Assembly (NCBI GenBank): GCA_037381915.1
Contig: JARRQJ010000003.1
Location: 3,917-67,916, forward strand
DNA length: 64,000 nucleotides
Direction: 5' to 3'
Source of the DNA: Gammaproteobacteria bacterium
Lineage (GTDB): Bacteria; Pseudomonadota; Gammaproteobacteria; DRLM01
Positions 788 through 61,816 of the stretch are shown here, piece after piece. Position numbers and translations under genes: made by a program. Each line of letters opens with the position of its first letter. Position 1 is the stretch's first letter. The notes under the pieces are model-generated. The model did not search any database, was not told the DNA's origin, and saw only the letters and a list, made by a program, of their open reading frames with translations.

Positions 788-886
788 CCGCTTACCCACC
801 CGGTCTACCTAAGTTAAGCGCCCACATAGGATTCCGTGTATGATACGGGATTTTTGCAGTCTCTGCGCGGCGCACGCACGTAAGTC

Positions 887-1450: not shown

Positions 1451-1453
1451 CAC

Positions 1454-1753: not shown

Positions 1754-2070
1754 TGACACAAACGGAGCGTATGCTGCGCATCCGCGAACGGCTCACTGCC
1801 AAGTTGCAGCCGCTGCAACTGGAAATCGTCGACGACAGCCACTTGCACGCCGGCCACGCCGGCGCGCGCGGCGGTGCGGGACATTTTACCATCCACATCG
1901 TCGCGCAGGGCTTCGCCGATAAGACGCTCATCGAGCGTCATCGCATGATTTACGAGTTATTACAGGATATGATGCACAGCGAAATCCATGCCTTGAGCAT
2001 TCAGGCGCGCAGCCCTAGTGAGCTTCAAGCCTCTAAACCCACGACAACACAAGGACCCATTCATGATTGA
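1753..2070 (+). CDS. bolA: BolA family protein
   Basis: ATG at 1753 overlaps the yciI-like stop (TGATG). The translation [38 protein letters not shown]...HFTIHIVAQGFADKTLIERHRMIYELL...IHALSIQ resembles E. coli BolA (..VVDES..H....SHF.V..VS..F.G...L.RHRMIY..L....VHAL.L). Confidence 0.8.
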   Translation: MTQTERMLRIRERLTAKLQPLQLEIVDDSHLHAGHAGARGGAGHFTIHIVAQGFADKTLIERHRMIYELLQDMMHSEIHALSIQARSPSELQASKPTTTQGPIHD

Positions 2071-2887: not shown

Positions 2888-2918
2888 AACGCCAGATACA
2901 AAGTCCAGCGGTTGCGTC

Positions 2919-2941
2919 GCCCCCCGCCGATGGCGGGGGGC
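2919..2941. terminator. GC-rich hairpin between convergent ppiC and TPR genes (likely bidirectional terminator)
   Basis: Perfect 10-bp stem GCCCCCCGCC / GGCGGGGGGC with a 3-nt loop (GAT), lying between two convergent stop codons (2887 and 2998). Confidence 0.55.
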
Positions 2942-2997
2942 TGCCGCGACGCCGCGGCGTTACGTCCGGGCGGCAAGCGCCTTCATACGCACCCCGT

Positions 2998-10668: not shown

Positions 10669-11325
10669 ATGGATATCCATCGACAAATGAAAGCACTGAT
10701 AATCGATGACCATCCGGTATTCATCGCCGCCCTGGAAACCCTGCTCAAGAACATGTACCAGGACATCGGTATCGATACTGCCACTTCAGCCGAAGCTGCG
10801 TTACGTCATATCGAATACCATCCCGATTATCAATTCATCCTGCTTGATCTCACCATGCCTGGCCTGGACGGCTTCGCCTTTTTGCGGGCGTTGGAACAAC
10901 GTAAGCTACCGATCCCTATAATCATCATCTCATCCTGCGAAGTGCCGGAAACCATCCACGCCTGCATCAACGCCGGAGCAGTGGGCTATATCCCCAAGTC
11001 CTATGACCTGGAACAGATGGCGCAGGCGATCGAACGTATCCACGACGGTGAAATCTACCTGCCGCAAGCGCTCACGCAAACGAGCGCGCAAACGGACGAG
11101 GCGGCCGTTAGACGGCGTTGCGAGCAAATCGGTATTACCACCAAAACCTACCAGGTTTTGGTGTGGCTGGCCAAAGGCAAGACCAATAAAGAGATCGCCG
11201 ACGAGCTGAATATCTCGGTACATACGGTGAAGGCACATCTGGCCAAACTGTATGAACGACTGCAGACCGGCAATCGGATGGATACGGCGATGGAGGCAAT
11301 ACGCCTGGGCTTGATTGACGGCTGA
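10669..11325 (+). CDS. LuxR/NarL-family two-component response regulator
   Basis: REC domain (ALIIDDHPVF...ILLDLTMPGLDGF...IIIISS) plus C-terminal LuxR HTH (LVWLAKGKTNKEIADELNISVHTVKAHLAKLYERL). Confidence 0.9.
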   Translation: MDIHRQMKALIIDDHPVFIAALETLLKNMYQDIGIDTATSAEAALRHIEYHPDYQFILLDLTMPGLDGFAFLRALEQRKLPIPIIIISSCEVPETIHACINAGAVGYIPKSYDLEQMAQAIERIHDGEIYLPQALTQTSAQTDEAAVRRRCEQIGITTKTYQVLVWLAKGKTNKEIADELNISVHTVKAHLAKLYERLQTGNRMDTAMEAIRLGLIDG

Positions 11326-11346
11326 ACCGTATTCCTTGGTGCGGAG

Positions 11347-27702: not shown

Positions 27703-27820
27703 GGGCGGCGGCTCGAACCCGCCCGACCCCGGCGCCCGAATCCGCTGCTGCCGCTGCTCCCTTCCGGGCCTGACGGGGTTCACAGCGTATCGTCGCGGGA
27801 GGACCGGCCCGAGCCACCAT
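27703..27820 (-). ncRNA. ffs: signal recognition particle RNA (4.5S RNA); ends approximate (+/-5 nt)
   Basis: The reverse complement reads GGUGGCUCGGGCCGGUCCUCCCGCGACG...CCCCGUCAGGCCCGGAAGGGAGCAGCGGCAGCAGCGG...GGGUUCGAGCCGCC. The core GUCAGGCCCGGAAGGGAGCAGC matches the conserved domain IV of E. coli 4.5S RNA (GGUCAGGUCCGGAAGGAAGCAGCC). The 5' GGUGGCUCG pairs with the 3' CGAGCCGCC. The position upstream of dnaX is common. Confidence 0.8.
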
Positions 27821-41855: not shown

Positions 41856-41881
41856 AATTGGCGGAGAGGGAGGGATTCGAA
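41856..41881. repeat. attL-type direct repeat: displaced copy of the tRNA-Ser 3' end
   Basis: AATTGGCGGAGAGGGAGGGATTCGAA is identical over 26 nt to 50224-50249, which covers the last 23 nt of tRNA-Ser(GGA) plus 3 nt downstream. Confidence 0.85.
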
Positions 41882-42080
41882 TCTTTGATATTTTTCATAT
41901 TATCAATAAGTTACAAAGATACCGTGTCCAGATTATGCCTGCCGCACGACAACAACGCACATACAAGCCATCCTCATTGGAGCTCCGATTGAACAGGAGG
42001 CTCGATGCGACCCACGATACAGCCGAGCCCGCGATATATTCTTATTTGAATAATTATACATGTAGATATATAATCCCCGC

Positions 42081-42401
42081 ATGAAGGATGTCCGATTCTG
42101 TGGTCGCTCTCTCGATGTGCTTCGCGACTTTCCGGCAGACGCGAAGCGTGAAGCCGGTTATCAGTTGGACCGGGTTCAACATGGATTGGAGCCAACCGAT
42201 TGGAAACCGATGCCGTCGATCGGATCGGGTGTTCGGGAGATCCGAATCATGCATGAAGGCCAGTATCGGGTGATTTATGTGGCGAAGTTCGCGGAAGCCG
42301 TCTATATCCTGCATGCCTTCCAGAAGAAAGCCCAGAAGACACGGAAACAGGATATCGATGCAGCAAAGCAGGCGCTGAAGCAGCTTCAAAATGAGGTGTG
42401 A
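42081..42401 (+). CDS. higB: type II toxin, RelE/ParE superfamily (HigB / phage Gp49-like)
   Basis: 106 aa. ...DWKPMPSIGSGVREIRI...YRVIYVAKFAEAVYILHAFQKKAQKTRKQDIDAAKQ matches the Gp49/HigB pattern (F.KK.QKT...I..A). The toxin-first order is typical of hig loci. Confidence 0.8.
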   Translation: MKDVRFCGRSLDVLRDFPADAKREAGYQLDRVQHGLEPTDWKPMPSIGSGVREIRIMHEGQYRVIYVAKFAEAVYILHAFQKKAQKTRKQDIDAAKQALKQLQNEV

Positions 42402-42683
42402 ATGATGACTAAAAATGTCCGGTTTACCAGTGTCTGGGATGCCTTGGAGGATGACCCGGTGCGCCAGGAGAATCTAAAGTTACGTTCTGTGTTGATGATG
42501 GAAATTGCGGAACGAATAAAGGATCAGGGCCTGACGCAAGCTCAAGCTGCTGAAGTGCTGCATATCACCCAGCCGCGAGTCAGCGCCCTTCTACATGGGA
42601 AGATTAACGATTTTCGTCTGGACAGCCTGGTCGACATGGCGCATCGACTAGGAATGCACGTTTCAATTAGCGTGGCCGCATGA
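42402..42683 (+). CDS. higA: XRE-family HTH antitoxin (HigA-like)
   Basis: 93 aa. It starts immediately after the higB stop (TGAATG). HTH GLTQAQAAEVLHITQPRVSALLHGK...F.LDSL. Confidence 0.8.
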   Translation: MMTKNVRFTSVWDALEDDPVRQENLKLRSVLMMEIAERIKDQGLTQAQAAEVLHITQPRVSALLHGKINDFRLDSLVDMAHRLGMHVSISVAA

Positions 42684-42812
42684 GATAACTCCCTCGACGC
42701 AAGGCAACGCATCCAGGCTGTAGCACTAGAGGGATTGGCGTTTAGTGCTGTAGCCGAGGCCTTTAGTGGACTTAGAAGGGACTGATGTGAACAGGAGCAG
42801 CATTAACGGCGC

Positions 42813-44267
42813 ATGACGACGCAGTTCTTCTCCGAGACTCGGCAGCACTTCTTCCGGCCTCTTACCGGAAAATACCGCGCCATGGTAGCCAACTGTCTAC
42901 AGGCGCTGTATTCACGCCTACACGGCCCAGAGGCCGACTACAGCACGCTGGTCACACGCGACGAGCTCATCGCCTTGCTGCTCCCAGTAGTCACCGAAAG
43001 CCCCGTGCTCGAGTCTGACGGCACCGAATCAGAGGAGGACTCCGGTGAAGACGAGCGCGCCAGGCTCAACGCGATCATCCGCCAGCTTATCGAGCACGGC
43101 TGGATCGAGACGCTCGCCGACAAATCTCAACTCGTGTCCGTCTACCGCCTCACGCGCGCCGGCAAGGTGTTCACGGAAGGGTTTCTTACACTCGAGGGGC
43201 GCGGTCTGCGCTCACGCCAGCGCAACGTGCGCAACACCCGTAACTCGCTCGCTCGCTACCTTGAGGACGGGGATCCGTTCAACCTGGTCGACGCCCTTAC
43301 TACAGCGGGACAGATCAACTCCGACCTATCTGACGACATCGACGACCTCCACGAGCGGCGCGCGGAACTACTGCGCGGTGCCGCCGGGCGCTACCGTGAG
43401 GCCTTCGATGAGTTCCTCGAATACATGAGGACGCACTTCGTGCCGGACCTATCGGTACGCCTGTCGGCCGATAGCGTCGAGAGTCACCGCAGCAGCATTC
43501 TCGCCAGTATTGAGGTCGTCCGCAGTTGGTCGGAGGAACAGCTCGACCGCGCAGCAGCAGACCTAGCGCGACTTTTCCCGGAGGTCGACACTTTTGGTAT
43601 CGGCAACCCGTTACTGCGCCTATTCGACCGCATCGAAAGCCTCGTCGATTCCGCCTGTGATGGCAAAATGCCCGAATTGCGCACCGCCTTGAGCGGGTTT
43701 GTGCGCCAAGCCGACGTGCTGATCCGACAGGCACAGGCGCTGTCGATCCATACGGAGGGCTCGCCTGCCCTGCTGTTCGACCGCCTCGGCAAACTTACAG
43801 ACAATCAGCGCGCGAGTTTCTTCAGCCAGGTGGGCATATCCGTGCTTCCGCCCTCCCCGGCGCTGCTCGACCCAGGCAAGATCAAGCGTGACGCGCCGAA
43901 ACCGCGCCGCACGATCGCCACCCTCAGCGAGACGCCACCGCCGACGCGCGAGGAGCTGCTCGCCGCCGCGCTCGCCAGTGCCCGCGAAGCGGCGTTCGCC
44001 CTGACCATTCCGAGTATCCGCAAGCGTGTTATAGCCCAGATTGGTGATGCGCCCTCGCTGCACATTCGCGACTTCCACGTTGTCGATGCCCTCGACCTGC
44101 TGGCACTGAGCCACTGCATTGAGATCGGCGCCGTCGGCTACCCCAACGATGAGCCTCGCCTGGTCGTCGATCCGGTGCTGGACAACGACGGCACCCCCAT
44201 CTGGGCCGATACACCCTATGGTCGGATCGAGGATTTCCGGATTCGCAAGGATTTCAGCCATGTCTGA
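42813..44267 (+). CDS. jetA: JetA-like (kleisin-like) subunit of a Wadjet/MksBEFG-type SMC complex
   Basis: 484 aa, first gene of a translationally coupled four-gene operon. Winged-helix-like segment RLNAIIRQLIEHGWIETL...VYRLTRAG. The assignment rests mainly on operon position and size. Confidence 0.6.
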   Translation: MTTQFFSETRQHFFRPLTGKYRAMVANCLQALYSRLHGPEADYSTLVTRDELIALLLPVVTESPVLESDGTESEEDSGEDERARLNAIIRQLIEHGWIETLADKSQLVSVYRLTRAGKVFTEGFLTLEGRGLRSRQRNVRNTRNSLARYLEDGDPFNLVDALTTAGQINSDLSDDIDDLHERRAELLRGAAGRYREAFDEFLEYMRTHFVPDLSVRLSADSVESHRSSILASIEVVRSWSEEQLDRAAADLARLFPEVDTFGIGNPLLRLFDRIESLVDSACDGKMPELRTALSGFVRQADVLIRQAQALSIHTEGSPALLFDRLGKLTDNQRASFFSQVGISVLPPSPALLDPGKIKRDAPKPRRTIATLSETPPPTREELLAAALASAREAAFALTIPSIRKRVIAQIGDAPSLHIRDFHVVDALDLLALSHCIEIGAVGYPNDEPRLVVDPVLDNDGTPIWADTPYGRIEDFRIRKDFSHV

Positions 44268-44955
44268 TGCCTGGGTGGACAATTTCGAAGATGCGCTGCA
44301 GCAGGCGCACATCAATGGCGAAAGCTTCCGCGAGGCGCTGCATCGACTGCTCGAGTACGGCGCCGTGGTCGCCGGAGACACCCAGCCGGAACGGCGCATC
44401 TACGACACGGTCACCCGCGGCTTCTCGCTGTTCGACAACTACCTGCAGCAGATGGGCTGCCGCCTCTACCACGACCGCCAGCTCGAGTACCTGCGCCTGT
44501 ACCCACCCGGGGCACGCATCCCTGGCGTCGAAGATGACGGCCTTCCCGCAGAGGGGTTGCGCGAACGTCTCAACCAGACCGAGGCCGCCACCCTAATGGT
44601 GCTGCGATTCCTGTACGATCAGAAGCTCGGCGAAGGCCAAGTGGATGACGACCAGGAGGCGGCGGTGCAGCTCGATGAGCTCACCTCCCTGATGAGCACC
44701 GCACTGGACCAGGTGCTGCCCACGAACCTCTCCGAGCGCCGCCAGATCCTGCGCCGCTTGCAGCGGCTCAAAGCCATTCGGGTTGATCCGGACGCCGATC
44801 TGCAGTCGCCGGAGAACTGGCTGTTCATTCGCCCGATGATCCTTACCCTGGTCAGCCCCGAATGGATCGAAGCGGTCAATCAGCGCATCGAGTCGACGAT
44901 CGAGCCTGACGGAGAGTCCGATGTAGACAACGAGGGCGTCGCCGATGTGGATTAA
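44260..44955 (+). CDS. jetB: JetB-like (MukE-like) small acidic subunit
   Basis: 231 aa. The ATG overlaps the jetA stop (ATGTCTGA). The pattern ...LLEYGAVV......Y..V.......DNYL...G..L..D..LEYLRL......RL...E...L.VLRFLY is reminiscent of DUF4194/MukE-like proteins. Acidic C-terminus. Confidence 0.6.
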   Translation: MSDAWVDNFEDALQQAHINGESFREALHRLLEYGAVVAGDTQPERRIYDTVTRGFSLFDNYLQQMGCRLYHDRQLEYLRLYPPGARIPGVEDDGLPAEGLRERLNQTEAATLMVLRFLYDQKLGEGQVDDDQEAAVQLDELTSLMSTALDQVLPTNLSERRQILRRLQRLKAIRVDPDADLQSPENWLFIRPMILTLVSPEWIEAVNQRIESTIEPDGESDVDNEGVADVD

Positions 44956-47900
44956 CAAGGTCGTCACCCTCAACTGGGGCACGCTACCCGACCGCGAATA
45001 CCCGCTCGGGGAGGTCACTTTGCTCGCGGGTCATACCGGCTCAGGCAAGAGCACGCTGGAGGACGCTATCCAGACGGTCATGACCGCCGCCCACCACGGG
45101 CTGTTCGCCTACAACCCGGGACAGGATGAGGCCAAACAGGGTGCGCGTTCCGGTAAGAAGGCGCGCAGTCTCGCTTCCTATATCCTCGGTGCAGATCGCG
45201 ATCGTTACGCACGGCCCGGCGGCGCCCACGGCTATGTTGCCTTGGTGTTTCGCCCTTCTGGCGAGGAGGACGGGCCTGCCTTCGCCGCGGTGTTCGGCGT
45301 CACCGCCAGCCTGGAAGAAGTGGGTGCTGGCGACAAGGTGCGCCGCGTACCACGCGAGTTGAACACCCAGATGATGCTAGTCCAGGCGGAGATTGGTATC
45401 GGAGATCTCGCCGAGCGCGCCGGGTCCTACGCCTTTGACGTCACTGACACCAAGGACGTCTACAACCGGTTGCGTGAACGTTTCGGACGTGATGCGGTGC
45501 GCGAGTTCAGCAGCAAGGAGAGTTATCTGTCCTACCTGTGGGGTGCGTTACGCGGTCGCGCCGGCAGCCTCGACGTTAAGGTAGCCAAGCGGGCCGCGCA
45601 GACTTTCTCCCAGGCAATGGCCTACAAACCCATCCGCTCAATCGACCGCTTCGTCAAGGATGAGATACTCCGCCCGAAAGACGTGAGCGCCGATGTTGCA
45701 CATCTTTCGAGTCTTGTACAACAAATGCACAAGATGCGCGAGGACGCCGAGACCATCAACCGGCGAACCGAGATGCTTGCCGCGATCCTCAAGGAGGGCG
45801 AGTTCGCGGCGCGCGCCTGGCTGTCGCGCAGCGAAACTCTTTACGTCAAGGCCGCCGGCATGGCGCATCGCAACTCCCAGGCGATTGAGCGGGCAACCAC
45901 CGAACGCGCCAAGGCCCAGAAAGATGCAGGCAGCGCCGAACAGCAATACCATCTGCTGGAGCAACAGGTCACCAACCTGGAGTCCCTGCGCACTCAACTC
46001 GACCGCCAACGCGGTGAGCACCCCAAGCTCTCCGAGCGCGGCCAACTTGAGGATACGCTGGAGCGATTCCGGGAGGACTATGGGCGACTGCGCCAAGCCC
46101 TGAGCGGCAAGACTCAGGAACTCAACACCATCCGCGACACATTGCGAGCGTTGCGTAACACGCCGGCCGCTCTGCGGGTCGACCCGGTTTTTGCCGATGC
46201 GTTCAAGCAGCTCGACCAAGCCCTGACGCTGTCAATTGGGCTCGACAGCGATGAACTACATACTGACATCATTCACGTACTCCGACACGAACCGGAGGCC
46301 GAAGGCACCGGTGAGGCGCTGCAGCGTCTGCGTGACGAATTGGGCGAGTCGGAGACCGCTATCGGATTGATCGAGGAGTCGATTAAGGGCGAGGTGGGTT
46401 TGCTCTCCCTCGTGCAGGAGCACTATTTCCAGCATGCGTCCCACGAAAAAGGGCTTGTAGAACGCCAGCGAGAGCTGCACGCGGAGATCCGTGAACTGTC
46501 CGAGGCGCGGCGCGTGAGCTATCTCAGGACGGCGTCCGAAGGGTTCGCCCTCCTACAGGCGCAACTGCCGGAGGCCAAGCCGCGGGTGTTGTGCGACCTG
46601 GTGGCCGTCCGGCCCAGCGAGGAGGAATGGCAACACGCCATCGAGGGCTATCTTGGCAACAACCGCTATATGCTCATCGTCGAGCAGAAATATGAGGTCG
46701 AGGCCAACCGCTTGCTGCGCCAGCACCCGGCCAAGGTCGCGCAAACCCATCGCATACTGCAGCGGGCTAGCGAACCGTTGCGCGCTGGTTCCATCGTCGA
46801 GTGCCTAGCCGTCGACGACCCGATCGCACAGGCCTATCTGCGTGCCGCCTATGGTGATGTCGTGAAAGTGCCGGACTTCGAGATACTGCGCCGTACCGCG
46901 CGCGGCGTCATGAAAGACGGGCGTTCCGCCGGTGGCTTCGCTACCGGTCGCTCCTGGGCTGAGGACCGCGACCTGGTATTCGGAGAAAGCGGGCGTCGTC
47001 GCCGTTTGGCCGCCCGCACAAGCGAGCTCACCCAACTTGACCGTCAATTGAACGATATCGGTAATCGGCGTAGTCGGTTGCAGGGTCTGAAGAGGCACCT
47101 TGAATCTATCCGCAGTCCTAATATTGTCGAGACCCTGTCCAACCTGATACACACCCGTATCGATCTAATCGAGGCTAAAGGTCGCCTAGCGACGCTTGAC
47201 CTAGGCGATGGCGTCGAGCTCGAGGCGCGCTATCAGAAGGTGCAAGCAGATTATAAGGCCGCGCTATCCGACAAGGAAAAGACAGCCGAGCGTCGGGTGA
47301 TCGCGCAACGCAAGGTTGAGGAGATGGAGAAAGAGATCGTACAGCTGCGTACACAGCAGATCGAACTGAATACACACCGAGAGAATGCCTATGGGCTGCT
47401 CGAGTGGCTTGATGGTGCCTCAGCCGACTACTCGCTGGAGGCGCAGATTGATGGGCTCAATGCCCAGGCGTCCGGCTTTGACGAGCAGATGAATAAGGCG
47501 CTCGATGCCCGCGTCACGGGCCACGAGGGCAATGTGGCCCGGCACCTCGGCGGGTTTCGCGACGGGCTGTATGGCTATAATCAAATGGCCGATACCTACC
47601 AGCGTGTGTTGTGGCCAGAAGTGCCGCTATCATCCGTCAGTTCTCAGGATGACTTCAGTTTGTTGCTGTCGATGATCGACGAGACACGCCGGCAACACGA
47701 TCGACACAAGAATCACCTGCTGGCCGTGGCGGAAGCGGAACTGCGCAACCTCGCTGAGCAGGTCAACAATGCGATCACGGCGAATTTCTGCCAGGTTATC
47801 AACCGCAGCCTGCAGGACGGACGCGATCAGATCCAGCGACTGAACCGTGCTCTGGAGGGCTATCACTTCAACGACGAGACCTATCGCTTCCACGCCGAAG

Positions 47901-48637
47901 CGGTGACCGACATGTCTCGTTACAACAGCCTGTTCGATGAGCTGAGCCGTGCTTACGATGTGCGCGGCGAACGGCTCGATCTATTCGGCGACGAATCCGG
48001 CAGTCTCAGTGAGGAAAGCCGCAAGACGCTGAACGAGCTGCTCGCGCTACTCGAACAGGGCGATCAGCAACAAGCACGCGAAAAACTCGAGCAGATCACC
48101 GACTACCGCAATTACCATAACTATGATGTCATCGCATACACCGGGGACGGCCACACCCTGAGCCTCGGCGAAAGCGCCACAGGCTCTGGCGGCCAGACCG
48201 AGACGCCCGCCTACGTGATCCGCTTAGCGGCGATCAGCAACGCTTACGGTCTCAACGACGAGCGCGGTCCGCGCCTGCGTTCCATCGTGCTCGACGAGGC
48301 CTTCTCCAAGATGGATGAGCCACGCACCGCGGAGGTTCTGCGCTTGTTCGCCGATGCTCGCTTCCGCTTTCAGGTAGTGTTTGCCATGCCGACGAAGAAC
48401 GCAGGCGCCTTCCAGCCGTTATTAACTCACAAGTACGTGTTCACCCGCACCAAGGCCACTGTGCCGCACGGCGAATTGCCCGACCGCACGCTGGTGAAGC
48501 TCGAGCTACCCGACCGCGCCGAGACACGCCGCCTGTGGGATCGTCATCTTGAGACGGTCGAGACGCAGGCGCGCCTGGAGTTTGAGGTCGAGAACCCCGA
48601 GCTGCCACCCGATCCCGTCTCCACGTCATCGTCATGA
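44945..48637 (+). CDS. jetC: JetC-like SMC-family ATPase
   Basis: 1230 aa. N-terminal head MWINKVVTLNWGTLPDREYPLGEVTLLAGHTGSGKSTLEDAIQ (Walker A G29-T37). The central region of about 700 aa is E/R/L/Q-rich (coiled-coil-like). Signature-like SGGQTETPAY and Walker B RSIVLDEAFSKMDE lie near the C-terminus. Confidence 0.8.
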   Translation: MWINKVVTLNWGTLPDREYPLGEVTLLAGHTGSGKSTLEDAIQTVMTAAHHGLFAYNPGQDEAKQGARSGKKARSLASYILGADRDRYARPGGAHGYVALVFRPSGEEDGPAFAAVFGVTASLEEVGAGDKVRRVPRELNTQMMLVQAEIGIGDLAERAGSYAFDVTDTKDVYNRLRERFGRDAVREFSSKESYLSYLWGALRGRAGSLDVKVAKRAAQTFSQAMAYKPIRSIDRFVKDEILRPKDVSADVAHLSSLVQQMHKMREDAETINRRTEMLAAILKEGEFAARAWLSRSETLYVKAAGMAHRNSQAIERATTERAKAQKDAGSAEQQYHLLEQQVTNLESLRTQLDRQRGEHPKLSERGQLEDTLERFREDYGRLRQALSGKTQELNTIRDTLRALRNTPAALRVDPVFADAFKQLDQALTLSIGLDSDELHTDIIHVLRHEPEAEGTGEALQRLRDELGESETAIGLIEESIKGEVGLLSLVQEHYFQHASHEKGLVERQRELHAEIRELSEARRVSYLRTASEGFALLQAQLPEAKPRVLCDLVAVRPSEEEWQHAIEGYLGNNRYMLIVEQKYEVEANRLLRQHPAKVAQTHRILQRASEPLRAGSIVECLAVDDPIAQAYLRAAYGDVVKVPDFEILRRTARGVMKDGRSAGGFATGRSWAEDRDLVFGESGRRRRLAARTSELTQLDRQLNDIGNRRSRLQGLKRHLESIRSPNIVETLSNLIHTRIDLIEAKGRLATLDLGDGVELEARYQKVQADYKAALSDKEKTAERRVIAQRKVEEMEKEIVQLRTQQIELNTHRENAYGLLEWLDGASADYSLEAQIDGLNAQASGFDEQMNKALDARVTGHEGNVARHLGGFRDGLYGYNQMADTYQRVLWPEVPLSSVSSQDDFSLLLSMIDETRRQHDRHKNHLLAVAEAELRNLAEQVNNAITANFCQVINRSLQDGRDQIQRLNRALEGYHFNDETYRFHAEAVTDMSRYNSLFDELSRAYDVRGERLDLFGDESGSLSEESRKTLNELLALLEQGDQQQAREKLEQITDYRNYHNYDVIAYTGDGHTLSLGESATGSGGQTETPAYVIRLAAISNAYGLNDERGPRLRSIVLDEAFSKMDEPRTAEVLRLFADARFRFQVVFAMPTKNAGAFQPLLTHKYVFTRTKATVPHGELPDRTLVKLELPDRAETRRLWDRHLETVETQARLEFEVENPELPPDPVSTSSS

Positions 48638-49767
48638 GTGATTTCGCGCCGCATCTGGAAGAGCCCGCAGTACGCGCCTTGCTTGACCGACTCGTCGACC
48701 TCCTTGATCGCACGCCGCTTGCCGAAAGGTCGCGCCCGCCCGGATTTCGTGTGAATCCCCGTGAATTGCCAATATTTTTCGCGATCGAGGATGCCCAGGA
48801 CCGCCGGCTGGTATGGCGCTTCATCGAGCAGTTGCGCGATGCCGGCTGGATTCAGATCGCCGGCAAGCGCCACGGTGCAGGCCAGGCGCCGTGGGAGGTG
48901 TCGCCGCGCCTCACGTTGGTGCCGCAGGCCGAGGGGGCGGTGCGTGCCGCGCTCGGTCGGGAGTTCGTCGAAACCCCCTACGCGCGGCAATGGCGCGAGG
49001 CGGTGCTGGCCGCCGCGCCGCGATTTGCCGGTGATGCCCGGCCGATCAGCCGCACACCCATCGAAGTGCCCGATGCCGCGCCCGAACAGATCATCGATCG
49101 GATCTGCAAGATGGCGGATCTGGCGCCGGGAACCCTCACCCGCGAGGCTAGCGCCCGTTATTTGTGGGGATTATCGAAACTATTAGATAACCGGGTCGAT
49201 GCGGTCAATGCCGCGCTGGGCCGGGCCGTGCTTCGCGAAAAGCCGCTTCTGGTTAACGTGCATGTGCCAAGCGACGCGCTACGCGAGGTGCTGTTCATCG
49301 AAAACGAGGTATCGTACCTGATGGCGATTGCTGCCTGTCCCGCGTGGCGGGCATTGGTATGGAGTTCCGGCTTCATGGCATCCGCCCGACGATTGCGCGA
49401 GCACGGTGGAATGACGATACATGCTACTGCAGCGAGCGCACGTGACGGTCTGTTCCGGCTCGAGATGTTGCTGCAAGGCGCCGAAGAGCTGCCATTCGCC
49501 TTCTTCGGCGATCTCGACTATGCGGGGATGCGGATCTTGCGTCAGTTGCGCGAGAGTTTTCCGTCGATGAGTGCCTGGCATGCTGGCTACCGAGCGTTGT
49601 TGCATCAGCTCGAGCGCGGTGATGGTCACTCGCCTGGGGCCGGCGATAAAGCCGGGCAGATCGATCCCGGGGCGACTGGGTGCATGTATGCCGACGGGAC
49701 AATACTCCCAGCCATTCGAGCATTAGGAAAGTTCGTAGACCAAGAAGGCTACAGTTGGATCGACTAA
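48634..49767 (+). CDS. jetD: JetD-like Toprim-domain nuclease subunit
   Basis: 377 aa. The start overlaps the jetC stop (ATGA). Toprim-type acidic motifs are in the C-terminal half (VLFIENEVSY; FAFFGDLDYAGMRILRQL). Confidence 0.65.
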   Translation: MSDFAPHLEEPAVRALLDRLVDLLDRTPLAERSRPPGFRVNPRELPIFFAIEDAQDRRLVWRFIEQLRDAGWIQIAGKRHGAGQAPWEVSPRLTLVPQAEGAVRAALGREFVETPYARQWREAVLAAAPRFAGDARPISRTPIEVPDAAPEQIIDRICKMADLAPGTLTREASARYLWGLSKLLDNRVDAVNAALGRAVLREKPLLVNVHVPSDALREVLFIENEVSYLMAIAACPAWRALVWSSGFMASARRLREHGGMTIHATAASARDGLFRLEMLLQGAEELPFAFFGDLDYAGMRILRQLRESFPSMSAWHAGYRALLHQLERGDGHSPGAGDKAGQIDPGATGCMYADGTILPAIRALGKFVDQEGYSWID

Positions 49768-50223: not shown

Positions 50224-50317
<94 letters not shown>

Positions 50318-54542: not shown

Positions 54543-57500
54543 TTAACAGGACAATGACAGCAATAGTCGCTGGGTCTCGATGGAAAGATCAACGCCAAGC
54601 TTGGCGCGAAAGACCTTGACTGCCCGCTCATAGAGCCGTACGGACTCGGCCTTCTGTCCGATGGCGGCGTAACTTGTCATCAGACCGCGATAGAAGGCCT
54701 CCACCAGATCGTCGATCTCCAAGGCACGCTGATAATAGCGGATCGCATCCTCATGGCGATTGAGCCGTTGCAGCTCCTTGCCCCAGTTGCAAAAGATCTG
54801 GACGAATTTGGCATGCAACCTTTCACGCATCGGAATGGCCCAAGGGGCGTCATCCTCCGAATCGAGAAAAGGCATATGATATATTTCGCAGATGGCCCCG
54901 TATGTCTCGCAGCCATCATTGGCCGCCTCCGAAGCCAGCCGTTCGAAGGTCCAGCAATCGACCCAGCAAAGCTGCGGATCCAGACTGAGACGCCCCTCCT
55001 GGCGCTTGACGGTGTCGTTGCCGATCAACTTGCGCAGCCTGAATAATGAGGTCGCAAGCGCCTGCTGGGCCGCGTCGCCGTCCGACTCAGGCCAGAGGGC
55101 GCTCGCCAGGCGCTGTTCGCTGACGTCTCTGCCGCCGAAGGCGATGAGTGCTTTCAACATATTCATCGGTGCGCGCTGTGCCTTGCCTTCAAAACGAATC
55201 GGCAAATCGTCATTCAATACATTAAAGCGGCCCAAAGTGTATATCTTTACCGGATACGGCCAGCTGTCCGTGGTGGCAGACGTCGGGTCCGGCAGAAGCT
55301 TATGCTGTTTGATAAGGCGACGGACGTAGTCGGCCTCTATCCCTTGATCCAGGGCAATGCCGCACAGCCTGGAGATCACCGAGCGCGGCCAGAAGAAAAA
55401 GTGCATGTAACCGTTTTCCCGGCCGAGACGCATCGCATCCGTGAGCAGCAGTATCCCTGTCGCCTCCTTGTTCTGATCGATGGCCAAATGAGCGGCGAAC
55501 AGCAAATAGACCCATTCGAGCAAAGGATTATCGATGGTTTGTCCGATTTCCCGCGCGCGCTGCAAATAGGCCTCGGCGGTTTCGGTATCACCCAACCAGT
55601 AGTACACCAATCCCATACCCAGCATGAACGCCGCCAGGAAATAGGCCTTACCCGATCGCTCCGCCTTTTTGATGGCGAATTCGGCGTGCTTGCCCGCCAC
55701 CCCCGGTTGATTGGTCAATGCGGCATGCCACGCAGCCATGGCATGGTAAATAGAGGCTTCGGTATAACGGGTCTTTTCAAACACCGCCGCCATACCTTTA
55801 ACAAAATCCCCCGCGGCATCAAGATCGTTCAGACTGAACGCCGTCGTCGCGCCATGTCCGAGCAAGACCATGTCCCACATATGAATCCCGGTATCCCGCG
55901 ACAATTGCAGCCCCTGATTTACCGACTGCAGACAACGTTCGTGAAGCCCGGCGTGCATGGCATAAATGGCATCGACCAGGTACCACATTACCTGCGCGAA
56001 CGGCGATGAATCGATCTTGCTCAAATCACCACGTTGTGTTTCAAGGATGATGCTTGCCTGGGCAAGGTCGCCGCGCCACAGGCAATTTTTGGCAATATGC
56101 AAGGTAAGCATCATGCGCAGGGCCGGATCGATATCGGAGGCGATCAGTTGCCTGGCGCGCTGTTCCACAAGCGTCATGCGTGGATGATTGGGTTTCCAAA
56201 ACATCATTGCGGTGAACATGGTAAAGGTCACGCTTCCGGCAATTTGCGGCGACGGCATATTCGGACAACGCGTCAACAGGGCGTCCATTTCACCGATCCA
56301 ATGCTCAGCCTCCTTTAGATCACCGTAGGCATAAACGATGGAATCCATCACGCCCGCCCAACTCAAAAAGACGCCTTCCGGATCGTCGTTCTCCTGAAAT
56401 AGGACGTAGGCCTGCTCGAAATAGGGACGGCTCAGCACCGGATCGTAGAACAATAGGCTCATGCCCAGCCAATAGCTCAGGTACGGCTTCGCATCCATAA
56501 CCTCCTCGGGAAACATGCGCAGCCAGGTCTCCAAAGTGCGGTGACGCCCCTGTTCATGGAGTCTTCCCGCATGTGCAGAGATCACCTCGGCGGCTGTGTC
56601 CCAGTCCTCTATCTTGAGAAACATTTGCACGCCGTCCTCCACCTGGCCCGAGGCTACCAATATCTGCGCCGCCCGGCGGCGAATGTCCTTCAAGGTTTCC
56701 GCTGAAAGCGTCGCTTCGGCCCGTTCCAAAAGAAATTCGCGAAACAACGGATGATATTGGTACACGGGATTTTGGTCGCCGTGTTTCGTGGTGAAATAAT
56801 TTAGCTGGGCGAACCGGGACACCATGCGGCTGGCCTCGGGTGAACCGATCAGTTCATCGATGGTCTGCGGCCACATGACGGGCAGGACGGCAGTATGCTG
56901 CATAATATCCTGAATCTCCGGAGAGAGGCTGTTGAAGACTTCTTCGGCGAAGTAATCGAATACGACGGAATCAAGCGCGCCCGCGGGCCCGCTTGCGAAA
57001 TTTACGTGGGACTTCATTTGCAGGACCAGGGACAGACCCGCCGCCCAACCGCCCACCCTCATCTGCAGTTGCTTTGCCGCCTCGTCCGAAGGCAGCATCA
57101 AACCGTGCATGGCCGCGATGGCCTTCACCTCGTCCGGGCTCAATTGCAGTTCATCCCATTCGATAATCGCCACCATGTTACTGGCGCGCAAGCGCGCCAT
57201 GGCGGGAGGGCATTCCTTTCTGGTGATGATCACGATACGCCCGCCTTGCGGCAATTCGCTACAGGCCACCCGTATCGCCTCGTGCAACGCCGCATCTTCC
57301 GCAACATCCTGGTAGTTGTCGAGCACGATAAGAAAGGGGACATCCAGCTGGCGGTAGAGCTCCTGAAAGTACTGCCGGGCAAAGGCAGCAATCCCCTGAG
57401 AAAACTCGGGCGTCAGATGCGGCATGGCTGGCTTGTCGTGCGCAGTCGTATCGTGGGCCGCCATGCCTAGATAATGAAAGAAGCTCGCCAGGTCCTCATC

Positions 57501-57713
57501 GCACTTGTCCACCTGATACCACAGACAGGGAAGATTACGAGTTTCGACATAGGTCGCGATCAAGGTCGACTTGCCGGCACCCGGGGGACCGCTGACCACC
57601 ACCAGCTGGCGGGAACGCATCTCGTCAAGCAGATTATGCAAATCGGTACGTTGATAAGTAAGTGCGAGTCTTGGGCGGGCAATTTTGGGTATGACAGCTT
57701 TATCCGCGCTCAT
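54543..57713 (-). CDS. STAND-type ATPase / TPR-like regulator with C-terminal SARP module (OmpR-type wHTH plus BTAD)
   Basis: 1056 aa. Walker A VVVSGPPGAGKSTL (aa 38-51), Walker B FLIVLDNYQDV, and MalT-like helical repeats. The last ~250 aa read VKIYTLGRFNVLNDDLPIRFEGKAQRAPMNMLKALIAFGG...LW.......A...L...L.RLRK.L, then ...AIRYYQRALEIDDLVEAFYRGLMTSYAAIGQKAESVRLYERAVKVFRAKLGV (BTAD). Confidence 0.8.
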   Translation of the reverse strand: MSADKAVIPKIARPRLALTYQRTDLHNLLDEMRSRQLVVVSGPPGAGKSTLIATYVETRNLPCLWYQVDKCDEDLASFFHYLGMAAHDTTAHDKPAMPHLTPEFSQGIAAFARQYFQELYRQLDVPFLIVLDNYQDVAEDAALHEAIRVACSELPQGGRIVIITRKECPPAMARLRASNMVAIIEWDELQLSPDEVKAIAAMHGLMLPSDEAAKQLQMRVGGWAAGLSLVLQMKSHVNFASGPAGALDSVVFDYFAEEVFNSLSPEIQDIMQHTAVLPVMWPQTIDELIGSPEASRMVSRFAQLNYFTTKHGDQNPVYQYHPLFREFLLERAEATLSAETLKDIRRRAAQILVASGQVEDGVQMFLKIEDWDTAAEVISAHAGRLHEQGRHRTLETWLRMFPEEVMDAKPYLSYWLGMSLLFYDPVLSRPYFEQAYVLFQENDDPEGVFLSWAGVMDSIVYAYGDLKEAEHWIGEMDALLTRCPNMPSPQIAGSVTFTMFTAMMFWKPNHPRMTLVEQRARQLIASDIDPALRMMLTLHIAKNCLWRGDLAQASIILETQRGDLSKIDSSPFAQVMWYLVDAIYAMHAGLHERCLQSVNQGLQLSRDTGIHMWDMVLLGHGATTAFSLNDLDAAGDFVKGMAAVFEKTRYTEASIYHAMAAWHAALTNQPGVAGKHAEFAIKKAERSGKAYFLAAFMLGMGLVYYWLGDTETAEAYLQRAREIGQTIDNPLLEWVYLLFAAHLAIDQNKEATGILLLTDAMRLGRENGYMHFFFWPRSVISRLCGIALDQGIEADYVRRLIKQHKLLPDPTSATTDSWPYPVKIYTLGRFNVLNDDLPIRFEGKAQRAPMNMLKALIAFGGRDVSEQRLASALWPESDGDAAQQALATSLFRLRKLIGNDTVKRQEGRLSLDPQLCWVDCWTFERLASEAANDGCETYGAICEIYHMPFLDSEDDAPWAIPMRERLHAKFVQIFCNWGKELQRLNRHEDAIRYYQRALEIDDLVEAFYRGLMTSYAAIGQKAESVRLYERAVKVFRAKLGVDLSIETQRLLLSLSC

Positions 57714-58821: not shown

Positions 58822-59676
58822 ATGGAATCCCAAGCGAGCTTGATTGATACATTGCGAGACACGCTCGGCCAAGCCCTCAATGGCCTGATCAAACTCATCC
58901 CCAATGTATTAAGCGCCGCCTTCGTAGTGATCATCGGCTGGCTACTGGCCCGCCTGATTAGGGGGCTGATCATTCGCGGTATTCATACCCTGGACCGGCT
59001 GCTGCGCAAGTTTACCGCTCATCAAGCCTCCCCCCCTCCCCTGGTTCAAGAACGTTCCGTCAAGGCGGTGAGCGCCCTCTTTTACTGGGCCGTCATCCTG
59101 CTGTTCCTGACCGCCGCCACCCAGGTCCTGGGTATGGGGGTCTTTTCGGATTGGTTGAGCGGCATCATGACATATCTTCCGGCGGTGATCGCCGGCATTC
59201 TTATTCTGCTCGCCGGTTTCGTCTTCAGCCTCATGGTGAAGGACCTGGTCACGGCGGCCGCCAACTCAGCCCATATCGCCTATGCCGAACTCCTGGGGCA
59301 AACGGCGCAGATACTGATCTTTTCCACCGCCGTAGTGGTGGGCATCGATCAGATGGGCATCAATATCACCTTCCTTATCGTAGTTGTCGCCATCATCCTG
59401 GGCATGATCTTCGGCGGCCTCGCCCTGGCCTTCGGCCTGGGCGCGAAGAACGTGGTCAATAACGTCCTCGCGGCGCATTATGTGCGCCAGGCCTATCAGA
59501 TCGGCGATACGGTCGAGTTCAACGATATCAAGGGCCGGATTGTCCAGGTGACCAATGTCGGTATCGTGGTGGAACACGAACGGGGACAAAGCCACATCCC
59601 CACCTCGCTGTTTTTAACCGGGCACTCTACCCGCCTGGAGGAGAATCGCCGCCATGAGCAACGACCTGGCCCTTAG
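58822..59676 (+). CDS. MscS-like / conserved-TM-helix family mechanosensitive channel-like membrane protein
   Basis: 284 aa from ATG 58822. It has repeated TM helices preceded by amphipathic segments, and a C-terminal beta-domain-like IGDTVEFNDIKGRIVQVTNVGIVVEHERGQSHIPTSLF. Confidence 0.6.
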   Translation: MESQASLIDTLRDTLGQALNGLIKLIPNVLSAAFVVIIGWLLARLIRGLIIRGIHTLDRLLRKFTAHQASPPPLVQERSVKAVSALFYWAVILLFLTAATQVLGMGVFSDWLSGIMTYLPAVIAGILILLAGFVFSLMVKDLVTAAANSAHIAYAELLGQTAQILIFSTAVVVGIDQMGINITFLIVVVAIILGMIFGGLALAFGLGAKNVVNNVLAAHYVRQAYQIGDTVEFNDIKGRIVQVTNVGIVVEHERGQSHIPTSLFLTGHSTRLEENRRHEQRPGP

Positions 59677-60487
59677 CCTCCTGTTTTGTGAAAACCATCC
59701 CTCCGATGCGGCGTCCCTCCTGGTCCGCCTGCCACCTGAATATGTCGCCGCCTTTTTGCGCTCCCTGTCCCCTGTTCAATGCATCAACCTCATTCAGCAC
59801 ATGCCGACCGCCTACACTACCCAGTTGCTCACTTATTTCGAAAAGGATTTTAGCGCACGCCTACTGTGCGAGGCGAACTTCTCCACGGCGACCAGACTGT
59901 TGCGCCCCTTCAATGCTCAGCAACGCGTAGAGTTGATGGCGTGTATGGACGCCGCGCAGTCCGCTCAATTGAGGCGGATGCTCAATTTTTCCCCAGGGAG
60001 CGTCGGCAACCTGGTGGAGATCCCGACGTTGACCGCCTTGGGGGATTGGACCGTCAAACACGCCCAACGGGAATTAAAGAAAATACGGCGCCACTCGCTC
60101 TTCGATTTTCCCGTCGTCGATGATGAACACCGTTTCCTGGGCCTAGTGACTATCCATGCCCTATTGATCGCTGCCGAAAACAGTCGCCTTGATGAGTTAT
60201 GCACAGGCAAGGATCTCGCCCTGCCCGCCTATGCCACCGTCGCCTCGGTGCTCAACCACCCCTTGTGGGAAAGGCGTCTCTCCCTGCCGGTGGTCGACCG
60301 CGGAGGGATTCTAATGGGCGTGTTGTATCACACCGGCCTCAAGGCACACGTTCCGACCCTCCCCGGCGCCCACGCACAAGACGTCCTGGCGCCGGTCATG
60401 GCCCTTGCCGAACTCTACTGGGCGGCGTCCTCATCGATCATCGACACCATCGGCAGAAAAAAGCCCTCTCGACCCAAGCGCACTTGA
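59654..60487 (+). CDS. soluble MgtE-like protein: MgtE N-domain plus tandem CBS, no transmembrane domain
   Basis: 277 aa. N-terminal helical domain (...AASLLVRLPPEYVAAFLRSLSP...), then ...FSPGSVGNLVEIPTLTA... and CBS-like ...DFPVVDDEHRFLGLVTIHALL... / ...SLPVVDRGGILMGVL.... There is no hydrophobic C-terminal region. It overlaps the upstream gene by 23 nt. Confidence 0.7.
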   Translation: MSNDLALSLLFCENHPSDAASLLVRLPPEYVAAFLRSLSPVQCINLIQHMPTAYTTQLLTYFEKDFSARLLCEANFSTATRLLRPFNAQQRVELMACMDAAQSAQLRRMLNFSPGSVGNLVEIPTLTALGDWTVKHAQRELKKIRRHSLFDFPVVDDEHRFLGLVTIHALLIAAENSRLDELCTGKDLALPAYATVASVLNHPLWERRLSLPVVDRGGILMGVLYHTGLKAHVPTLPGAHAQDVLAPVMALAELYWAASSSIIDTIGRKKPSRPKRT

Positions 60488-60502: not shown

Positions 60503-61816
60503 ATGGCCAACGCCACCACTACCGCCGTCAATGCCCTCAACCGCTTTTTCATCCGCCAATACCCGGGCGAAGTCGCCGCGTGGTTGAGCGATCTGTCGCC
60601 CAAAGAGGCGGTCAGCGCCGTTGTCCGCATCCCGGCCAATATGATCGCGGCGGTCTGGGAGAAATTGCCCGTGCATGTCGCCCGTTCCCTGCTCGGCAAC
60701 CTGTCTTTGGAGCAAGCCCGCGGCATCTTGATGCGCGTCGACCCTTCTCATGCCGCCTTAGTCCTGCGCAGTCTGGAGCCGGAGCTACGCGAACGGTACC
60801 TGGGAGGACTCGAACCTCTGCTGGCCAAGGAACTGCTACGGCTGATGAACTATCCGCTGGACAGCGCCGGGGCGTTGATGGATCCCGCGATTGTCGCGTT
60901 TAAGGGCGACGCGGTGGCCCAGCAAACCCTGAAGCAATTGCGGCGCCATCGCGGCCATGTCGGCCGCCATATCTTCATCGTCGATGAACAAGGCGCCCTC
61001 GAAGGGTTAGTCGATATCCAGGATCTGGCCCTCGCCGGCGGCAAAACGCGGCTGAGCGCGCTCGCCTGGCCGGCGAAAATCATGGTGGACGTAATGACCA
61101 GCCGGGAAGAAATCGCCGCCATCCTGGAAACCCATAAGATCAGCGAACTGCCGGTCATTGACGCCCGCGGCTGTCTGGCCGGCATCATCCGTTACGACGC
61201 CCTGATCAGCGCAGTGCAGAATGAGACCAGTGTGGATATTCAGACCATGGTCGGCGCCAGCAAGGACGAGCGCGCCCTGTCACCCATCCCCTTCGCGGTG
61301 CGCAAGCGCCTCCCCTGGCTGCAGATCAACCTGGCTACCGCTTTTCTCGCCTCGGCGGTGGTCGGCCTCTTCGAAGGCACCATCGCCCACTTCACGGCCC
61401 TGGCGGTGTTATCACCCATCGTCGCCGGCCAGGCGGGCAACACCGGACAGCAGGCATTGGCGGTGACCATGCGCGGCCTTTCCCTGCGCGAGATCAGCGC
61501 ACACCATTGGTGGCGGATGCTTTATAAAGAGATGAGCACGGGCTTAATCAACGGCATCGCCATCGCCCTGACTACCGCCTTCTTTGTCTATTTGTGGTCG
61601 CAGTCGTTAAGCATGGCGACGGTCATCGCCGTCGCCATGGTGCTGTCCATGGTGGCGGCGGGGTTCGCCGGCGCCATCATCCCCTTGATCCTGACCGTTC
61701 TCGATCAGGATCCAGCGCAGGCGTCCTCTATTATCCTTACCACCATCACCGATTGCACCGGTTTTGGAACGTTTCTCGGCATCGCCACGCTGGCGGCGGC
61801 CGCGGGGCTGCTTTGA
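60503..61816 (+). CDS. mgtE: magnesium transporter MgtE (full length)
   Basis: 437 aa. N-domain, two CBS (..HIFIVDEQGALEGLVDIQDL..; ..ELPVIDARGCLAGIIRYDAL..), a connecting helix, and five TM segments including ...SPIVAGQAGNTGQQALAVTMRGL... and ...ILTTITDCTGFGTFLG. Confidence 0.93.
   Translation: MANATTTAVNALNRFFIRQYPGEVAAWLSDLSPKEAVSAVVRIPANMIAAVWEKLPVHVARSLLGNLSLEQARGILMRVDPSHAALVLRSLEPELRERYLGGLEPLLAKELLRLMNYPLDSAGALMDPAIVAFKGDAVAQQTLKQLRRHRGHVGRHIFIVDEQGALEGLVDIQDLALAGGKTRLSALAWPAKIMVDVMTSREEIAAILETHKISELPVIDARGCLAGIIRYDALISAVQNETSVDIQTMVGASKDERALSPIPFAVRKRLPWLQINLATAFLASAVVGLFEGTIAHFTALAVLSPIVAGQAGNTGQQALAVTMRGLSLREISAHHWWRMLYKEMSTGLINGIAIALTTAFFVYLWSQSLSMATVIAVAMVLSMVAAGFAGAIIPLILTVLDQDPAQASSIILTTITDCTGFGTFLGIATLAAAAGLL

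Follow-up and report, generated by a model that had tools for sequence, protein, structure and literature searches.

Wadjet is a bacterial complex that recognises small circular plasmids and cleaves them. In the type I systems that have been studied, an IFDR motif at the N-terminus of JetB contacts the arm/CAP domain of JetD, and in type III systems the JetD3-type nuclease is composed of DUF2239 and DUF2220. The condensins are core chromosomal genes and have no Toprim nuclease subunit. Described systems with which a new operon can be compared include the type I systems of E. coli GF4-3 (8AS8, 8BFN, 8Q72) and P. aeruginosa PA14 (7TIL, 8DK1, 8DK2), the type I MksBEFG complex of C. glutamicum, an actinobacterial host (MksG, 8B7F), and the type II system of Neobacillus vireti (9QE0). 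MksG has a DUF3322 + DUF2220 architecture, and its residues E236 and D279 have been validated by mutation (PMC10123090); the JetB protein of type II systems is a tandem KITE (bioRxiv 10.1101/2025.03.10.642339). Here we describe an operon, located in a 64,000-nt stretch of DNA (the window) from an uncultured gammaproteobacterium, that shares its gene order and subunit families with the E. coli and P. aeruginosa systems, its overall design of an SMC sensor plus a Toprim nuclease with the N. vireti system, and homologous SMC, kleisin and KITE subunits with the MukBEF/MksBEF condensins. We consider it very probable that the locus is an intact type I Wadjet system, and that the 8.4-kb island which carries both this system and a HigBA-like toxin-antitoxin pair was inserted at tRNA-Ser(GGA).

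The features of the island are collected in Table 1. A preliminary description had reported four co-directional open reading frames chained by overlaps at 42813-49767, and the coordinates, sizes and overlaps were all reproduced. Direct reading of the sequence gives an 8-nt overlap between jetA and jetB (ATGTCTGA, 44260-44267), an 11-nt overlap between jetB and jetC (44945-44955) and a 4-nt ATGA shared by the jetC stop and the jetD start (48634-48637). These start/stop overlaps point to translational coupling of the jet genes, which would help to hold the ratios of the Jet subunits constant. A promoter-like site was not found directly upstream of jetA. In a program-made list of reading frames, ORF2 is given 278 aa, with a TTG start farther upstream, at 44119. 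As judged from sequence comparison, a better jetB start is the ATG at 44260, because residue 7 is where the PADLOC JetB1 match starts, because homologues begin at an equivalent position, and because the 8-, 11- and 4-nt overlaps recur in a Cupriavidus plasmid copy (RefSeq annotation) and in Thiodiazotropha MAGs (gene calls).

Table 1. Genes and boundary elements of the island, in window coordinates.
Feature	Position	Strand	Size and basis
Left island repeat, partial duplicate of tRNA-Ser 3' end	41856..41890		Direct repeat D3
HigB-like toxin (Gp49/RelE family)	42081-42401	+	Pfam Gp49 5e-26
HTH_37 antitoxin	42402-42683	+	Pfam HTH_37 3.2e-23
jetA (ORF1), kleisin subunit, MukF-like	42813..44267	+	484 aa; Pfam + PADLOC + AF2 fold
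jetB (ORF2), KITE subunit, MukE-like	44260..44955	+	231 aa from ATG; Pfam + PADLOC
jetC (ORF3), SMC/MukB-like ABC ATPase	44945..48637	+	1230 aa; Pfam + PADLOC + motifs
jetD (ORF4), Toprim nuclease	48634..49767	+	377 aa; Pfam + PADLOC + AF2 fold
tRNA-Ser(GGA)	50227..50317	-	ARAGORN; Rfam tRNA 54.9 bits

All four genes are identified as Wadjet/JetABCD by Pfam thresholds, PADLOC models, predicted folds and synteny. The earlier proposal of a Wadjet (JetABCD/MksBEFG-like) operon is thus upheld by Pfam, near-full-length PADLOC Jet models, folds and a conserved four-gene synteny. In the Pfam scan that had been suggested as a check, all four proteins score above curated gathering scores, so the resemblance is not due to chance, and the genes follow the order kleisin (JetA), KITE (JetB), SMC ATPase (JetC) and Toprim nuclease (JetD). 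The suggested PADLOC comparison likewise gave matches that run almost end to end: JetA1 (PDLC00445, 340 bits, E=7.9e-102) over residues 5-458, JetB1 (PDLC00470, 197 bits, E=4.6e-59) over residues 7-213, JetC1 (PDLC00507, a model of 1215 positions, 910 bits, E=7.9e-274) over residues 1-1218, and JetD1 (PDLC00527, 309 bits, E=1.2e-92) over residues 6-373.

JetC matches the Pfam families AAA_29 (44.5 bits) and SbcC_Walker_B (77.2 bits). The ATPase motifs noticed previously in ORF3 are present as G29HTGSGKS (Walker A), S1081GGQ and I1114VLDE (Walker B), and among 27 homologues K35, S1081-Q1084, D1117 and E1118 are invariant. The N-terminal LNWG..P motif is also conserved in these proteins, with N10, W11 and P15 invariant and G12 nearly so. 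In the conservation profile, two stretches of low conservation, with many E, R, K, Q, L and A residues, lie between three conserved blocks, and from this pattern we predict a head / coiled coil / hinge layout with heads at ~1-270 and 931-1200, a hinge at ~511-690 and two arms of ~240 aa. When the profile was searched against the PDB, the best match was P. aeruginosa JetC (8dk1_C, E=5.5e-4), followed by MukB, and the arms matched coiled-coil proteins.

ORF1, for which the preliminary description had found no match to the canonical type I families and had proposed a check against DUF3375, proved to belong instead to PF18982 (JetA, formerly DUF5716; 50.4 bits, cut-off 26.2). The PF18982 domain is present in all 92 homologues of JetA, many of which bear the name 'Wadjet anti-phage system protein JetA'. 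A JetA profile found nothing relevant in the PDB. Its AF2 model, of moderate quality (pLDDT 76), contains an N-terminal helix/strand unit resembling a winged-helix domain (WHD), in keeping with the winged-helix-like segment noted before, followed by long helices and, at the C-terminus, a second helix/strand unit. As modeled, JetA would therefore have the N-terminal WHD, helical bundle and C-terminal WHD of a MukF-like kleisin. The closest folds are MukF (9gm7_C), then N. vireti type II JetA (9qe0_E, E=6.7e-6), E. coli JetA (8q72_E) and P. aeruginosa JetA (8dk2_A). JetB, as had been stated, is small and acidic (231 aa, pI 4.39), and it matches DUF4194 (86.9 bits, cut-off 32.7) as well as MksE, the latter at 25 bits, slightly below its Pfam cut-off.

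JetD scores 28.4 bits against Pfam JetD_C (PF09983; cut-off 22), and its AF2 model has a pLDDT of 92.7. The top three PDB folds for this model are MksG (8b7f, E=2.2e-7) and chains B and A of P. aeruginosa JetD (7til, 6-7e-7), and Topo VI-A folds rank after these. Both acidic motifs reported previously for ORF4 are present, I222EN within FIENE and D293LD within GDLDYAG, and the residues E223, N224, G292, D293 and D295 do not vary among 46 homologues. JetD thus carries the metal-binding glutamate and the DxD motif of a Toprim domain (E223, D293/D295); in an alignment with MksG, E223 and D293 fall on its metal ligands E236 and D279, and E223 would correspond to E248 of E. coli JetD, a correspondence deduced by way of MksG E236 and the Toprim motif that the proteins share. 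The N-terminal half has no Pfam match, including none to DUF3322 at E<=0.01, so that in JetD Pfam detects the C-terminal domain alone, whereas MksG has both DUF3322 and DUF2220. The earlier statement that the first ~230 aa of ORF4 are unmatched therefore stands with respect to Pfam, but not beyond it, since the PADLOC JetD1 match covers this region and the predicted fold aligns with the whole length of MksG and JetD (422-429 columns).

The homology of JetA, JetB and JetC to MukF, MukE and MukB, with MukF as the top fold for JetA, MukB among the profile matches of JetC and a sub-threshold MksE match for JetB, is also what would be seen if the operon encoded a chromosome-organising condensin of the MksBEF/MukBEF type instead of a defence system. 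We regard this as extremely improbable. Unlike MukBEF and MksBEF, the operon contains a JetD/MksG-type Toprim nuclease gene that appears to be translationally coupled to jetC and whose metal ligands are intact, and such a subunit occurs in Wadjet complexes alone (bioRxiv 10.1101/2023.11.03.565488). In addition, the operon lies on an accessory, tRNA-flanked island, the neighbourhoods of its relatives vary and are rich in defence genes, and the 80 loci retrieved by way of the adjacent rhomboid gene all lack jet genes.

The subtype, which the preliminary description had left unassigned, is type I as judged from PADLOC models and from papers later than the original type definitions. All significant PADLOC Jet matches of JetA and JetB are to type I models, and JetC and JetD favour the type I models by hundreds of bits. 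The best type II JetC model (JetC2) reaches 38 bits, JetD3 models reach 24 and 19 bits in a region confined to ~45 residues around the DxD motif, and JetA2/3, JetB2/3 and JetC3 are absent from the PADLOC match lists. In NCBIfam, JetA, JetB and JetD match no family; the membership in TIGR02677-TIGR02680 that had been suggested for checking was not found, as the only match, of JetC to the type II family TIGR02680, has 29 bits, whereas the cut-off is 462.85. Type II was rejected on this score and because JetB is a single 231-aa DUF4194 protein rather than a tandem KITE, and type III was rejected on the low JetD3 scores and the absence of its partner models. Lamassu, Rad50/SbcCD and other SMC-like defence systems were considered and rejected as well: LmuB and mad models score <=25 bits against 910 for JetC1.

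Within type I, the lineage lies far from every Wadjet system that has been studied. Structural alignments with the E. coli and P. aeruginosa proteins have an identity of only ~13-16% (JetD ~16%), JetD is 16% identical to MksG, which is its best structural match, and phmmer searches of the PDB with the single sequences returned zero matches for all four proteins (E-value limits of 0.001 for JetC and 0.01 for JetA, JetB and JetD). A JetD profile reached one PDB sequence, MksG, at E=0.047, a JetD scan of genome representatives gave no confirmed relatives, and a phmmer search with JetB extended to only 154 representative clusters. Whereas JetB of the E. coli and P. aeruginosa systems carries the IFDR motif, the literal motif is absent from the JetB N-terminus described here, which reads MSDAWVDNFEDAL; its relatives have a short hydrophobic-acidic segment before the first winged helix, with no fixed motif. 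This divergence, together with the missing DUF3322 match, is what might suggest a type II or III system, or a new fourth subtype with different JetD docking or substrate range. Such an assignment is very unlikely, given the dominance of the type I models, the TIGR02680 score, the single KITE of JetB and the full-length alignment of the JetD model with type I MksG and JetD. The preliminary suggestion of a divergent subtype was accordingly right about sequence divergence and not about a separate subtype. Since the JetD arm/CAP region escapes DUF3322 and JetB lacks IFDR, the operon could conceivably represent a nominally type I sub-branch that attaches or activates JetD through an interface unlike that of the E. 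coli and P. aeruginosa systems, although we think this unlikely.

Relatives of the operon occur in gamma- and betaproteobacteria, and the lineage is already called Wadjet in RefSeq. The jetA-B-C-D order is kept in relatives from unrelated neighbourhoods, frequently beside other defence genes, and jetD is retained with jetA, jetB and jetC in all relatives examined. On the Cupriavidus taiwanensis plasmid NZ_CP016951.1, the JetD protein shares 38% identity, the genes stand in the same order with the same 8-, 11- and 4-nt overlaps, and the products are annotated by RefSeq as 'Wadjet anti-phage system protein JetA family protein' and '...JetD domain-containing protein'. This betaproteobacterial copy differs in being located on a 578-kb conjugative plasmid, without the HigBA pair and without the tRNA-Ser island context.

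The jetABCD genes and the HigBA-like pair form an 8.4-kb island bounded by a duplicated tRNA-Ser 3' end. The two copies of repeat D3 (41856..41890 and 50224-50258) match at 31 of 35 positions, their first 26 nt being identical, and start 8368 nt apart; the right boundary is the 3' end of tRNA-Ser(GGA), which lies inside the second copy. The HigBA-like pair is directly upstream of jetA and is not a Wadjet component; a sigma-70-like promoter, TTGAAT-17-TATAAT, is located at 42046-42074. The island carries no integrase, and no remnant of one was found in the 459-nt AT-rich stretch after jetD or at the left border, using Pfam on a 95-aa reverse reading frame and tblastn with a Thiodiazotropha integrase. 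In Thiodiazotropha, the integrase comes after jetD. A rhomboid / tRNA-Ser / putA arrangement was found at none of the 80 rhomboid loci, of which the closest is only ~70% identical. In a sister assembly, 99.9% identical, jetC is frameshifted by the deletion of 61 nt, and an insertion of the IS3 family is present immediately downstream of jetD; the system may therefore be dispensable and perhaps decaying in the population, or the sister assembly may be erroneous.

The missing integrase and the damaged sister copy would fit an inactive remnant, in which the jet genes are decaying cargo of a degenerate, non-functional island. For the copy in the window this is very unlikely, as its four reading frames have the full length expected from the PADLOC models, the gene overlaps are intact and all of the invariant catalytic residues are kept. 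Moreover, the jet genes have a GC3 of 0.69-0.81, like that of the adjacent chromosomal genes, which suggests long residence without decay.

By analogy with characterised type I systems (PMC10586767, bioRxiv 10.1101/2023.11.03.565488, 10.1101/2025.03.10.642339), we infer that the type I Wadjet complex assembles, extrudes DNA loops, cleaves DNA and restricts plasmids in this organism. JetC would be the SMC/MukB-like ATPase, JetA the kleisin, JetB the KITE dimer and JetD the Toprim nuclease. JetABC would form a dimer of two loop-extruding motors, linked via the JetA N-termini, that loads on DNA and pulls it in with ATP. On a small closed circle, both motors would exhaust the available DNA and enter a cleavage-competent state holding a bent DNA segment, to which a JetD dimer would dock by its arm/CAP domains and cleave the two strands at its Toprim metal sites, which would here be E223 and D293/D295. 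The linearised plasmid would subsequently be lost, and the chromosome and very large replicons would be spared because their full extrusion is impossible.

The locus, a further divergent member of type I Wadjet, comes from an uncultured gammaproteobacterium and has little significance beyond its correct annotation. If the JetD interface were indeed distinct, the substrate-size threshold or the sensitivity to plasmid anti-Wadjet factors could differ, and the operon would represent a functionally separate sub-branch that merits its own structure. The locus is an example of Wadjet moving on a minimal tRNA-Ser island, 8.4 kb long, along with a toxin-antitoxin pair. As a distant reference, it could also help to establish which JetD-JetABC contacts are universal in Wadjet, and the presence of intact and frameshifted copies in near-identical assemblies hints that plasmid immunity is still being gained and lost in a natural population, neither of which contradicts current understanding.

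The four-gene operon had been read in the preliminary description as Wadjet (JetABCD), an identity borne out by family models. When the four proteins were compared with Pfam, as that description had proposed, all four scored above the curated cut-off of a Wadjet-related family, and the best PADLOC-DB matches were type I for all four, near full length (see table). We assign the operon to Wadjet type I from its sequence because these type I models match near full length, the type II JetC and type III JetD models of PADLOC reach at most 38 and 24 bits, respectively, and JetC scores far under the cut-off of the NCBIfam type II model TIGR02680 (29 bits, cut-off 463). The last was the only family returned by the NCBIfam comparison that had also been proposed, with JetA, JetB and JetD remaining without an NCBIfam match.

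Features of the jetABCD locus and the rest of the window, with profile matches (Pfam bits/curated cut-off; E-value of the best PADLOC model)
Feature	Coordinates	Strand	Length (aa)	Pfam	PADLOC	Remark
jetA (ORF1)	42813-44267	+	484	JetA PF18982, 50.4/26.2	JetA1, 7.9e-102
jetB (ORF2)	44260-44955	+	231	DUF4194, 86.9/32.7	JetB1, 4.6e-59	length counted from ATG
jetC (ORF3)	44945-48637	+	1230	AAA_29, 44.5/27; SbcC_Walker_B, 77.2/27	JetC1 (residues 1-1218), 7.9e-274
jetD (ORF4)	48634-49767	+	377	JetD_C PF09983, 28.4/22	JetD1 (residues 6-373), 1.2e-92
Gp49/HigB-like toxin and HTH_37 antitoxin	42081-42683	+				identified by Pfam; directly upstream of jetA
tRNA-Ser(GGA)	50227-50317	-				3' end duplicated to the left
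tRNA-Ser 3'-end repeat, two copies	41856-41890; 50224-50258
Sigma-70-like promoter	42046-42074					ahead of higB
Inverted repeat AGCACTA/TAGTGCT	42722-42728; 42743-42749					seen by eye
Small SRP RNA, bacterial	27713-27809	-				Rfam RF00169, 64 bits
AAA_16/TPR/BTAD protein	54543-57713	-	1055
MgtE_N and CBS gene	59654-60487	+
Full-length MgtE-related gene	60503-61816	+

Direct reading of the junctions places the four ORFs and their overlaps where they had been described: jetA and jetB share the 8 nt ATGTCTGA (44260-44267), the first 11 nt of jetC, from its ATG at 44945, are also the last of jetB, whose stop codon ends at 44955, and jetC and jetD overlap by the 4-nt ATGA at 48634-48637. The mechanically called ORF2 reaches back to a TTG at 44119; the ATG at 44260 is favoured as the start by the PADLOC model alignments, by the N-termini of homologues and by relatives whose genes overlap by the same 8, 11 and 4 nt. 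The motifs reported earlier are likewise all present, namely the Walker A (G29HTGSGKS), SGGQ (S1081GGQ) and Walker B (I1114VLDE) sequences of JetC and the Toprim-like I222EN and D293LD of JetD, and the acidity ascribed to ORF2 agrees with its pI of 4.39. A conservation profile of 27 JetC homologues contains three conserved blocks (~1-270, ~511-690 and ~931-1200) set apart by two poorly conserved ~240-aa stretches rich in E/R/K/Q/L/A, a pattern that predicts an SMC-type head/arm/hinge/arm/head layout. In the PDB, the JetC profile matches P. aeruginosa JetC (8dk1_C) best; next come MukB and a variety of coiled-coil proteins, which align with the arms. The AlphaFold2 model of JetA, the kleisin, is of moderate quality (pLDDT 76), and its best matches are MukF (9gm7_C, 7nz2, 3euh), a type II JetA (9qe0_E), E. 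coli JetA (8q72_E) and P. aeruginosa JetA (8dk2_A).

For JetD, an AlphaFold2 model built from a 46-homologue alignment reached a mean pLDDT of 92.7. Its top three matches in the PDB are the nuclease MksG of C. glutamicum (8b7f, E=2e-7) and both chains of the P. aeruginosa JetD structure 7til (6-7e-7), with topoisomerase VI-A next. Global TM-scores are low (0.2-0.35), which would fit the flexible linker that joins the arm/CAP to the Toprim domain in JetD (PMC10586767; bioRxiv 10.1101/2023.11.03.565488). Residues E223, N224, G292, D293 and D295 are invariant in the 46-sequence alignment; in a profile alignment, E223 and D293 align with MksG E236 and D279, metal ligands whose mutation drastically lowers DNA cleavage (PMC10123090). 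For this operon the analysis thus covers the families to which the proteins belong, the intactness of their catalytic residues and the folds predicted for them.

ORF1 and the N-terminal ~230 aa of ORF4 had appeared unfamiliar, and a divergent subtype was suggested as a possibility. The unfamiliarity has a basis: single-sequence PDB searches found nothing for JetA, JetB, JetC or JetD, structural alignments give just 13-16% identity between solved JetD and JetA structures and their counterparts here, and Pfam did not detect DUF3322 in the N-terminal half of JetD. Type I JetB is reported to carry an N-terminal IFDR motif (PMC10586767; bioRxiv 10.1101/2025.03.10.642339); a literal IFDR is absent from the JetB N-terminus of the window, and an exhaustive phmmer search of 1.84 billion representatives with JetB reached only 154 clusters. 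The operon appears from its sequence to be a deep branch inside type I, one that dedicated PADLOC sub-models already cover, and very probably not a new type.

Together with the toxin-antitoxin pair, the operon makes up an 8.4-kb island whose boundaries are the duplicated 3' end of tRNA-Ser(GGA), the two copies of which lie 8368 nt apart and match at 31 of 35 positions, including the first 26. Besides these genes the island holds only an AT-rich 459-nt tail (GC 0.47); GC is likewise low at its borders (0.43-0.47), searches found neither an integrase nor a remnant of one, and ordinary chromosomal genes flank it (a LysR regulator, a rhomboid protease and PutA). Because the only sigma-70-like promoter called in the island and near the operon precedes higB, co-transcription of jetABCD with the higBA-like pair is possible; the pair may be co-transcribed in this way, or may stabilise the island. 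Between the stop codon of the antitoxin gene and the start of jetA lie 129 nt with a 7-bp inverted repeat, which may act as an operator or form a weak hairpin. An empty site was not found, the nearest genomes with the rhomboid gene being only ~70% identical and not syntenic, and none of 80 rhomboid-gene loci had jet genes. Elsewhere in the window, the 1055-aa protein encoded downstream of putA and a cytochrome c gene is predicted from its domains to be a large STAND/AfsR-like regulator, and two MgtE-related genes adjoin, the first comprising MgtE_N and CBS domains only and the second encoding a complete transporter.

Over the locus, the window and the MAG contig JARRQL010000073.1 (GCA_037381885.1) share 99.7-99.9% identity. 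The contig carries a 61-nt deletion between short CAG repeats (window 48004-48064; 9432-9434 of the fetched locus, L001) that frameshifts jetC and breaks its product into pieces of 1050 and 168 aa, and an IS3-family transposase (L001 11397-12547) inserted after window position 50012. These two changes may reflect natural loss of Wadjet from some members of the population, or errors in that assembly.

If the operon works like the characterised type I systems, from which the following steps are taken (PMC10586767; bioRxiv 10.1101/2023.11.03.565488; bioRxiv 10.1101/2025.03.10.642339), a JetABC motor dimer would extrude DNA in an ATP-driven manner; on a small circle, completed extrusion would turn the complex cleavage-competent, whereupon a JetD dimer would dock and kinked DNA would be cut at the Toprim sites, with large replicons escaping. 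By analogy, we infer that the operon studied here would cleave DNA and restrict plasmids.

Homologues were detectable for JetD (69), JetA (92) and JetC (210), mostly in metagenomic gamma- and betaproteobacteria, with Microbulbifer, Thalassolituus, Gilvimarinus, Teredinibacter, Oceanobacter, Rhizobacter and Azohydromonas among the cultured hosts; many bear the source name 'Wadjet anti-phage system protein JetA/JetD'. The jetA-B-C-D order is conserved in all fetched neighbourhoods of relatives (L002-L008), each in a different genomic setting, and defence or mobility genes often adjoin (a BrxR-type WYL regulator, an E2/E1/JAB-patatin protein, integrases, an AAA_15/DUF4276 pair and an HNH protein). 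Specifically, in two Candidatus Thiodiazotropha MAGs (L002/L003) the WYL regulator and the large E2/E1/JAB-patatin protein lie upstream of the operon (1-4115) and a short tyrosine-integrase gene (219-226 aa; 11196-11876) follows it, a typical defence-island setting. The same lineage is also carried by megaplasmids of Cupriavidus, Variovorax and Ralstonia, including a 578-kb conjugative plasmid of C. taiwanensis (NZ_CP016951.1, L009 2150-9080) with the same 8/11/4-nt overlaps, on which RefSeq names JetA family, DUF4194, SbcC/MukB-like and JetD-domain proteins. A plasmid-borne anti-plasmid system is compatible with the size limit that has been reported for restriction by Wadjet. The locus is a further uncharacterised representative of a well-known system, within reach of standard tools.
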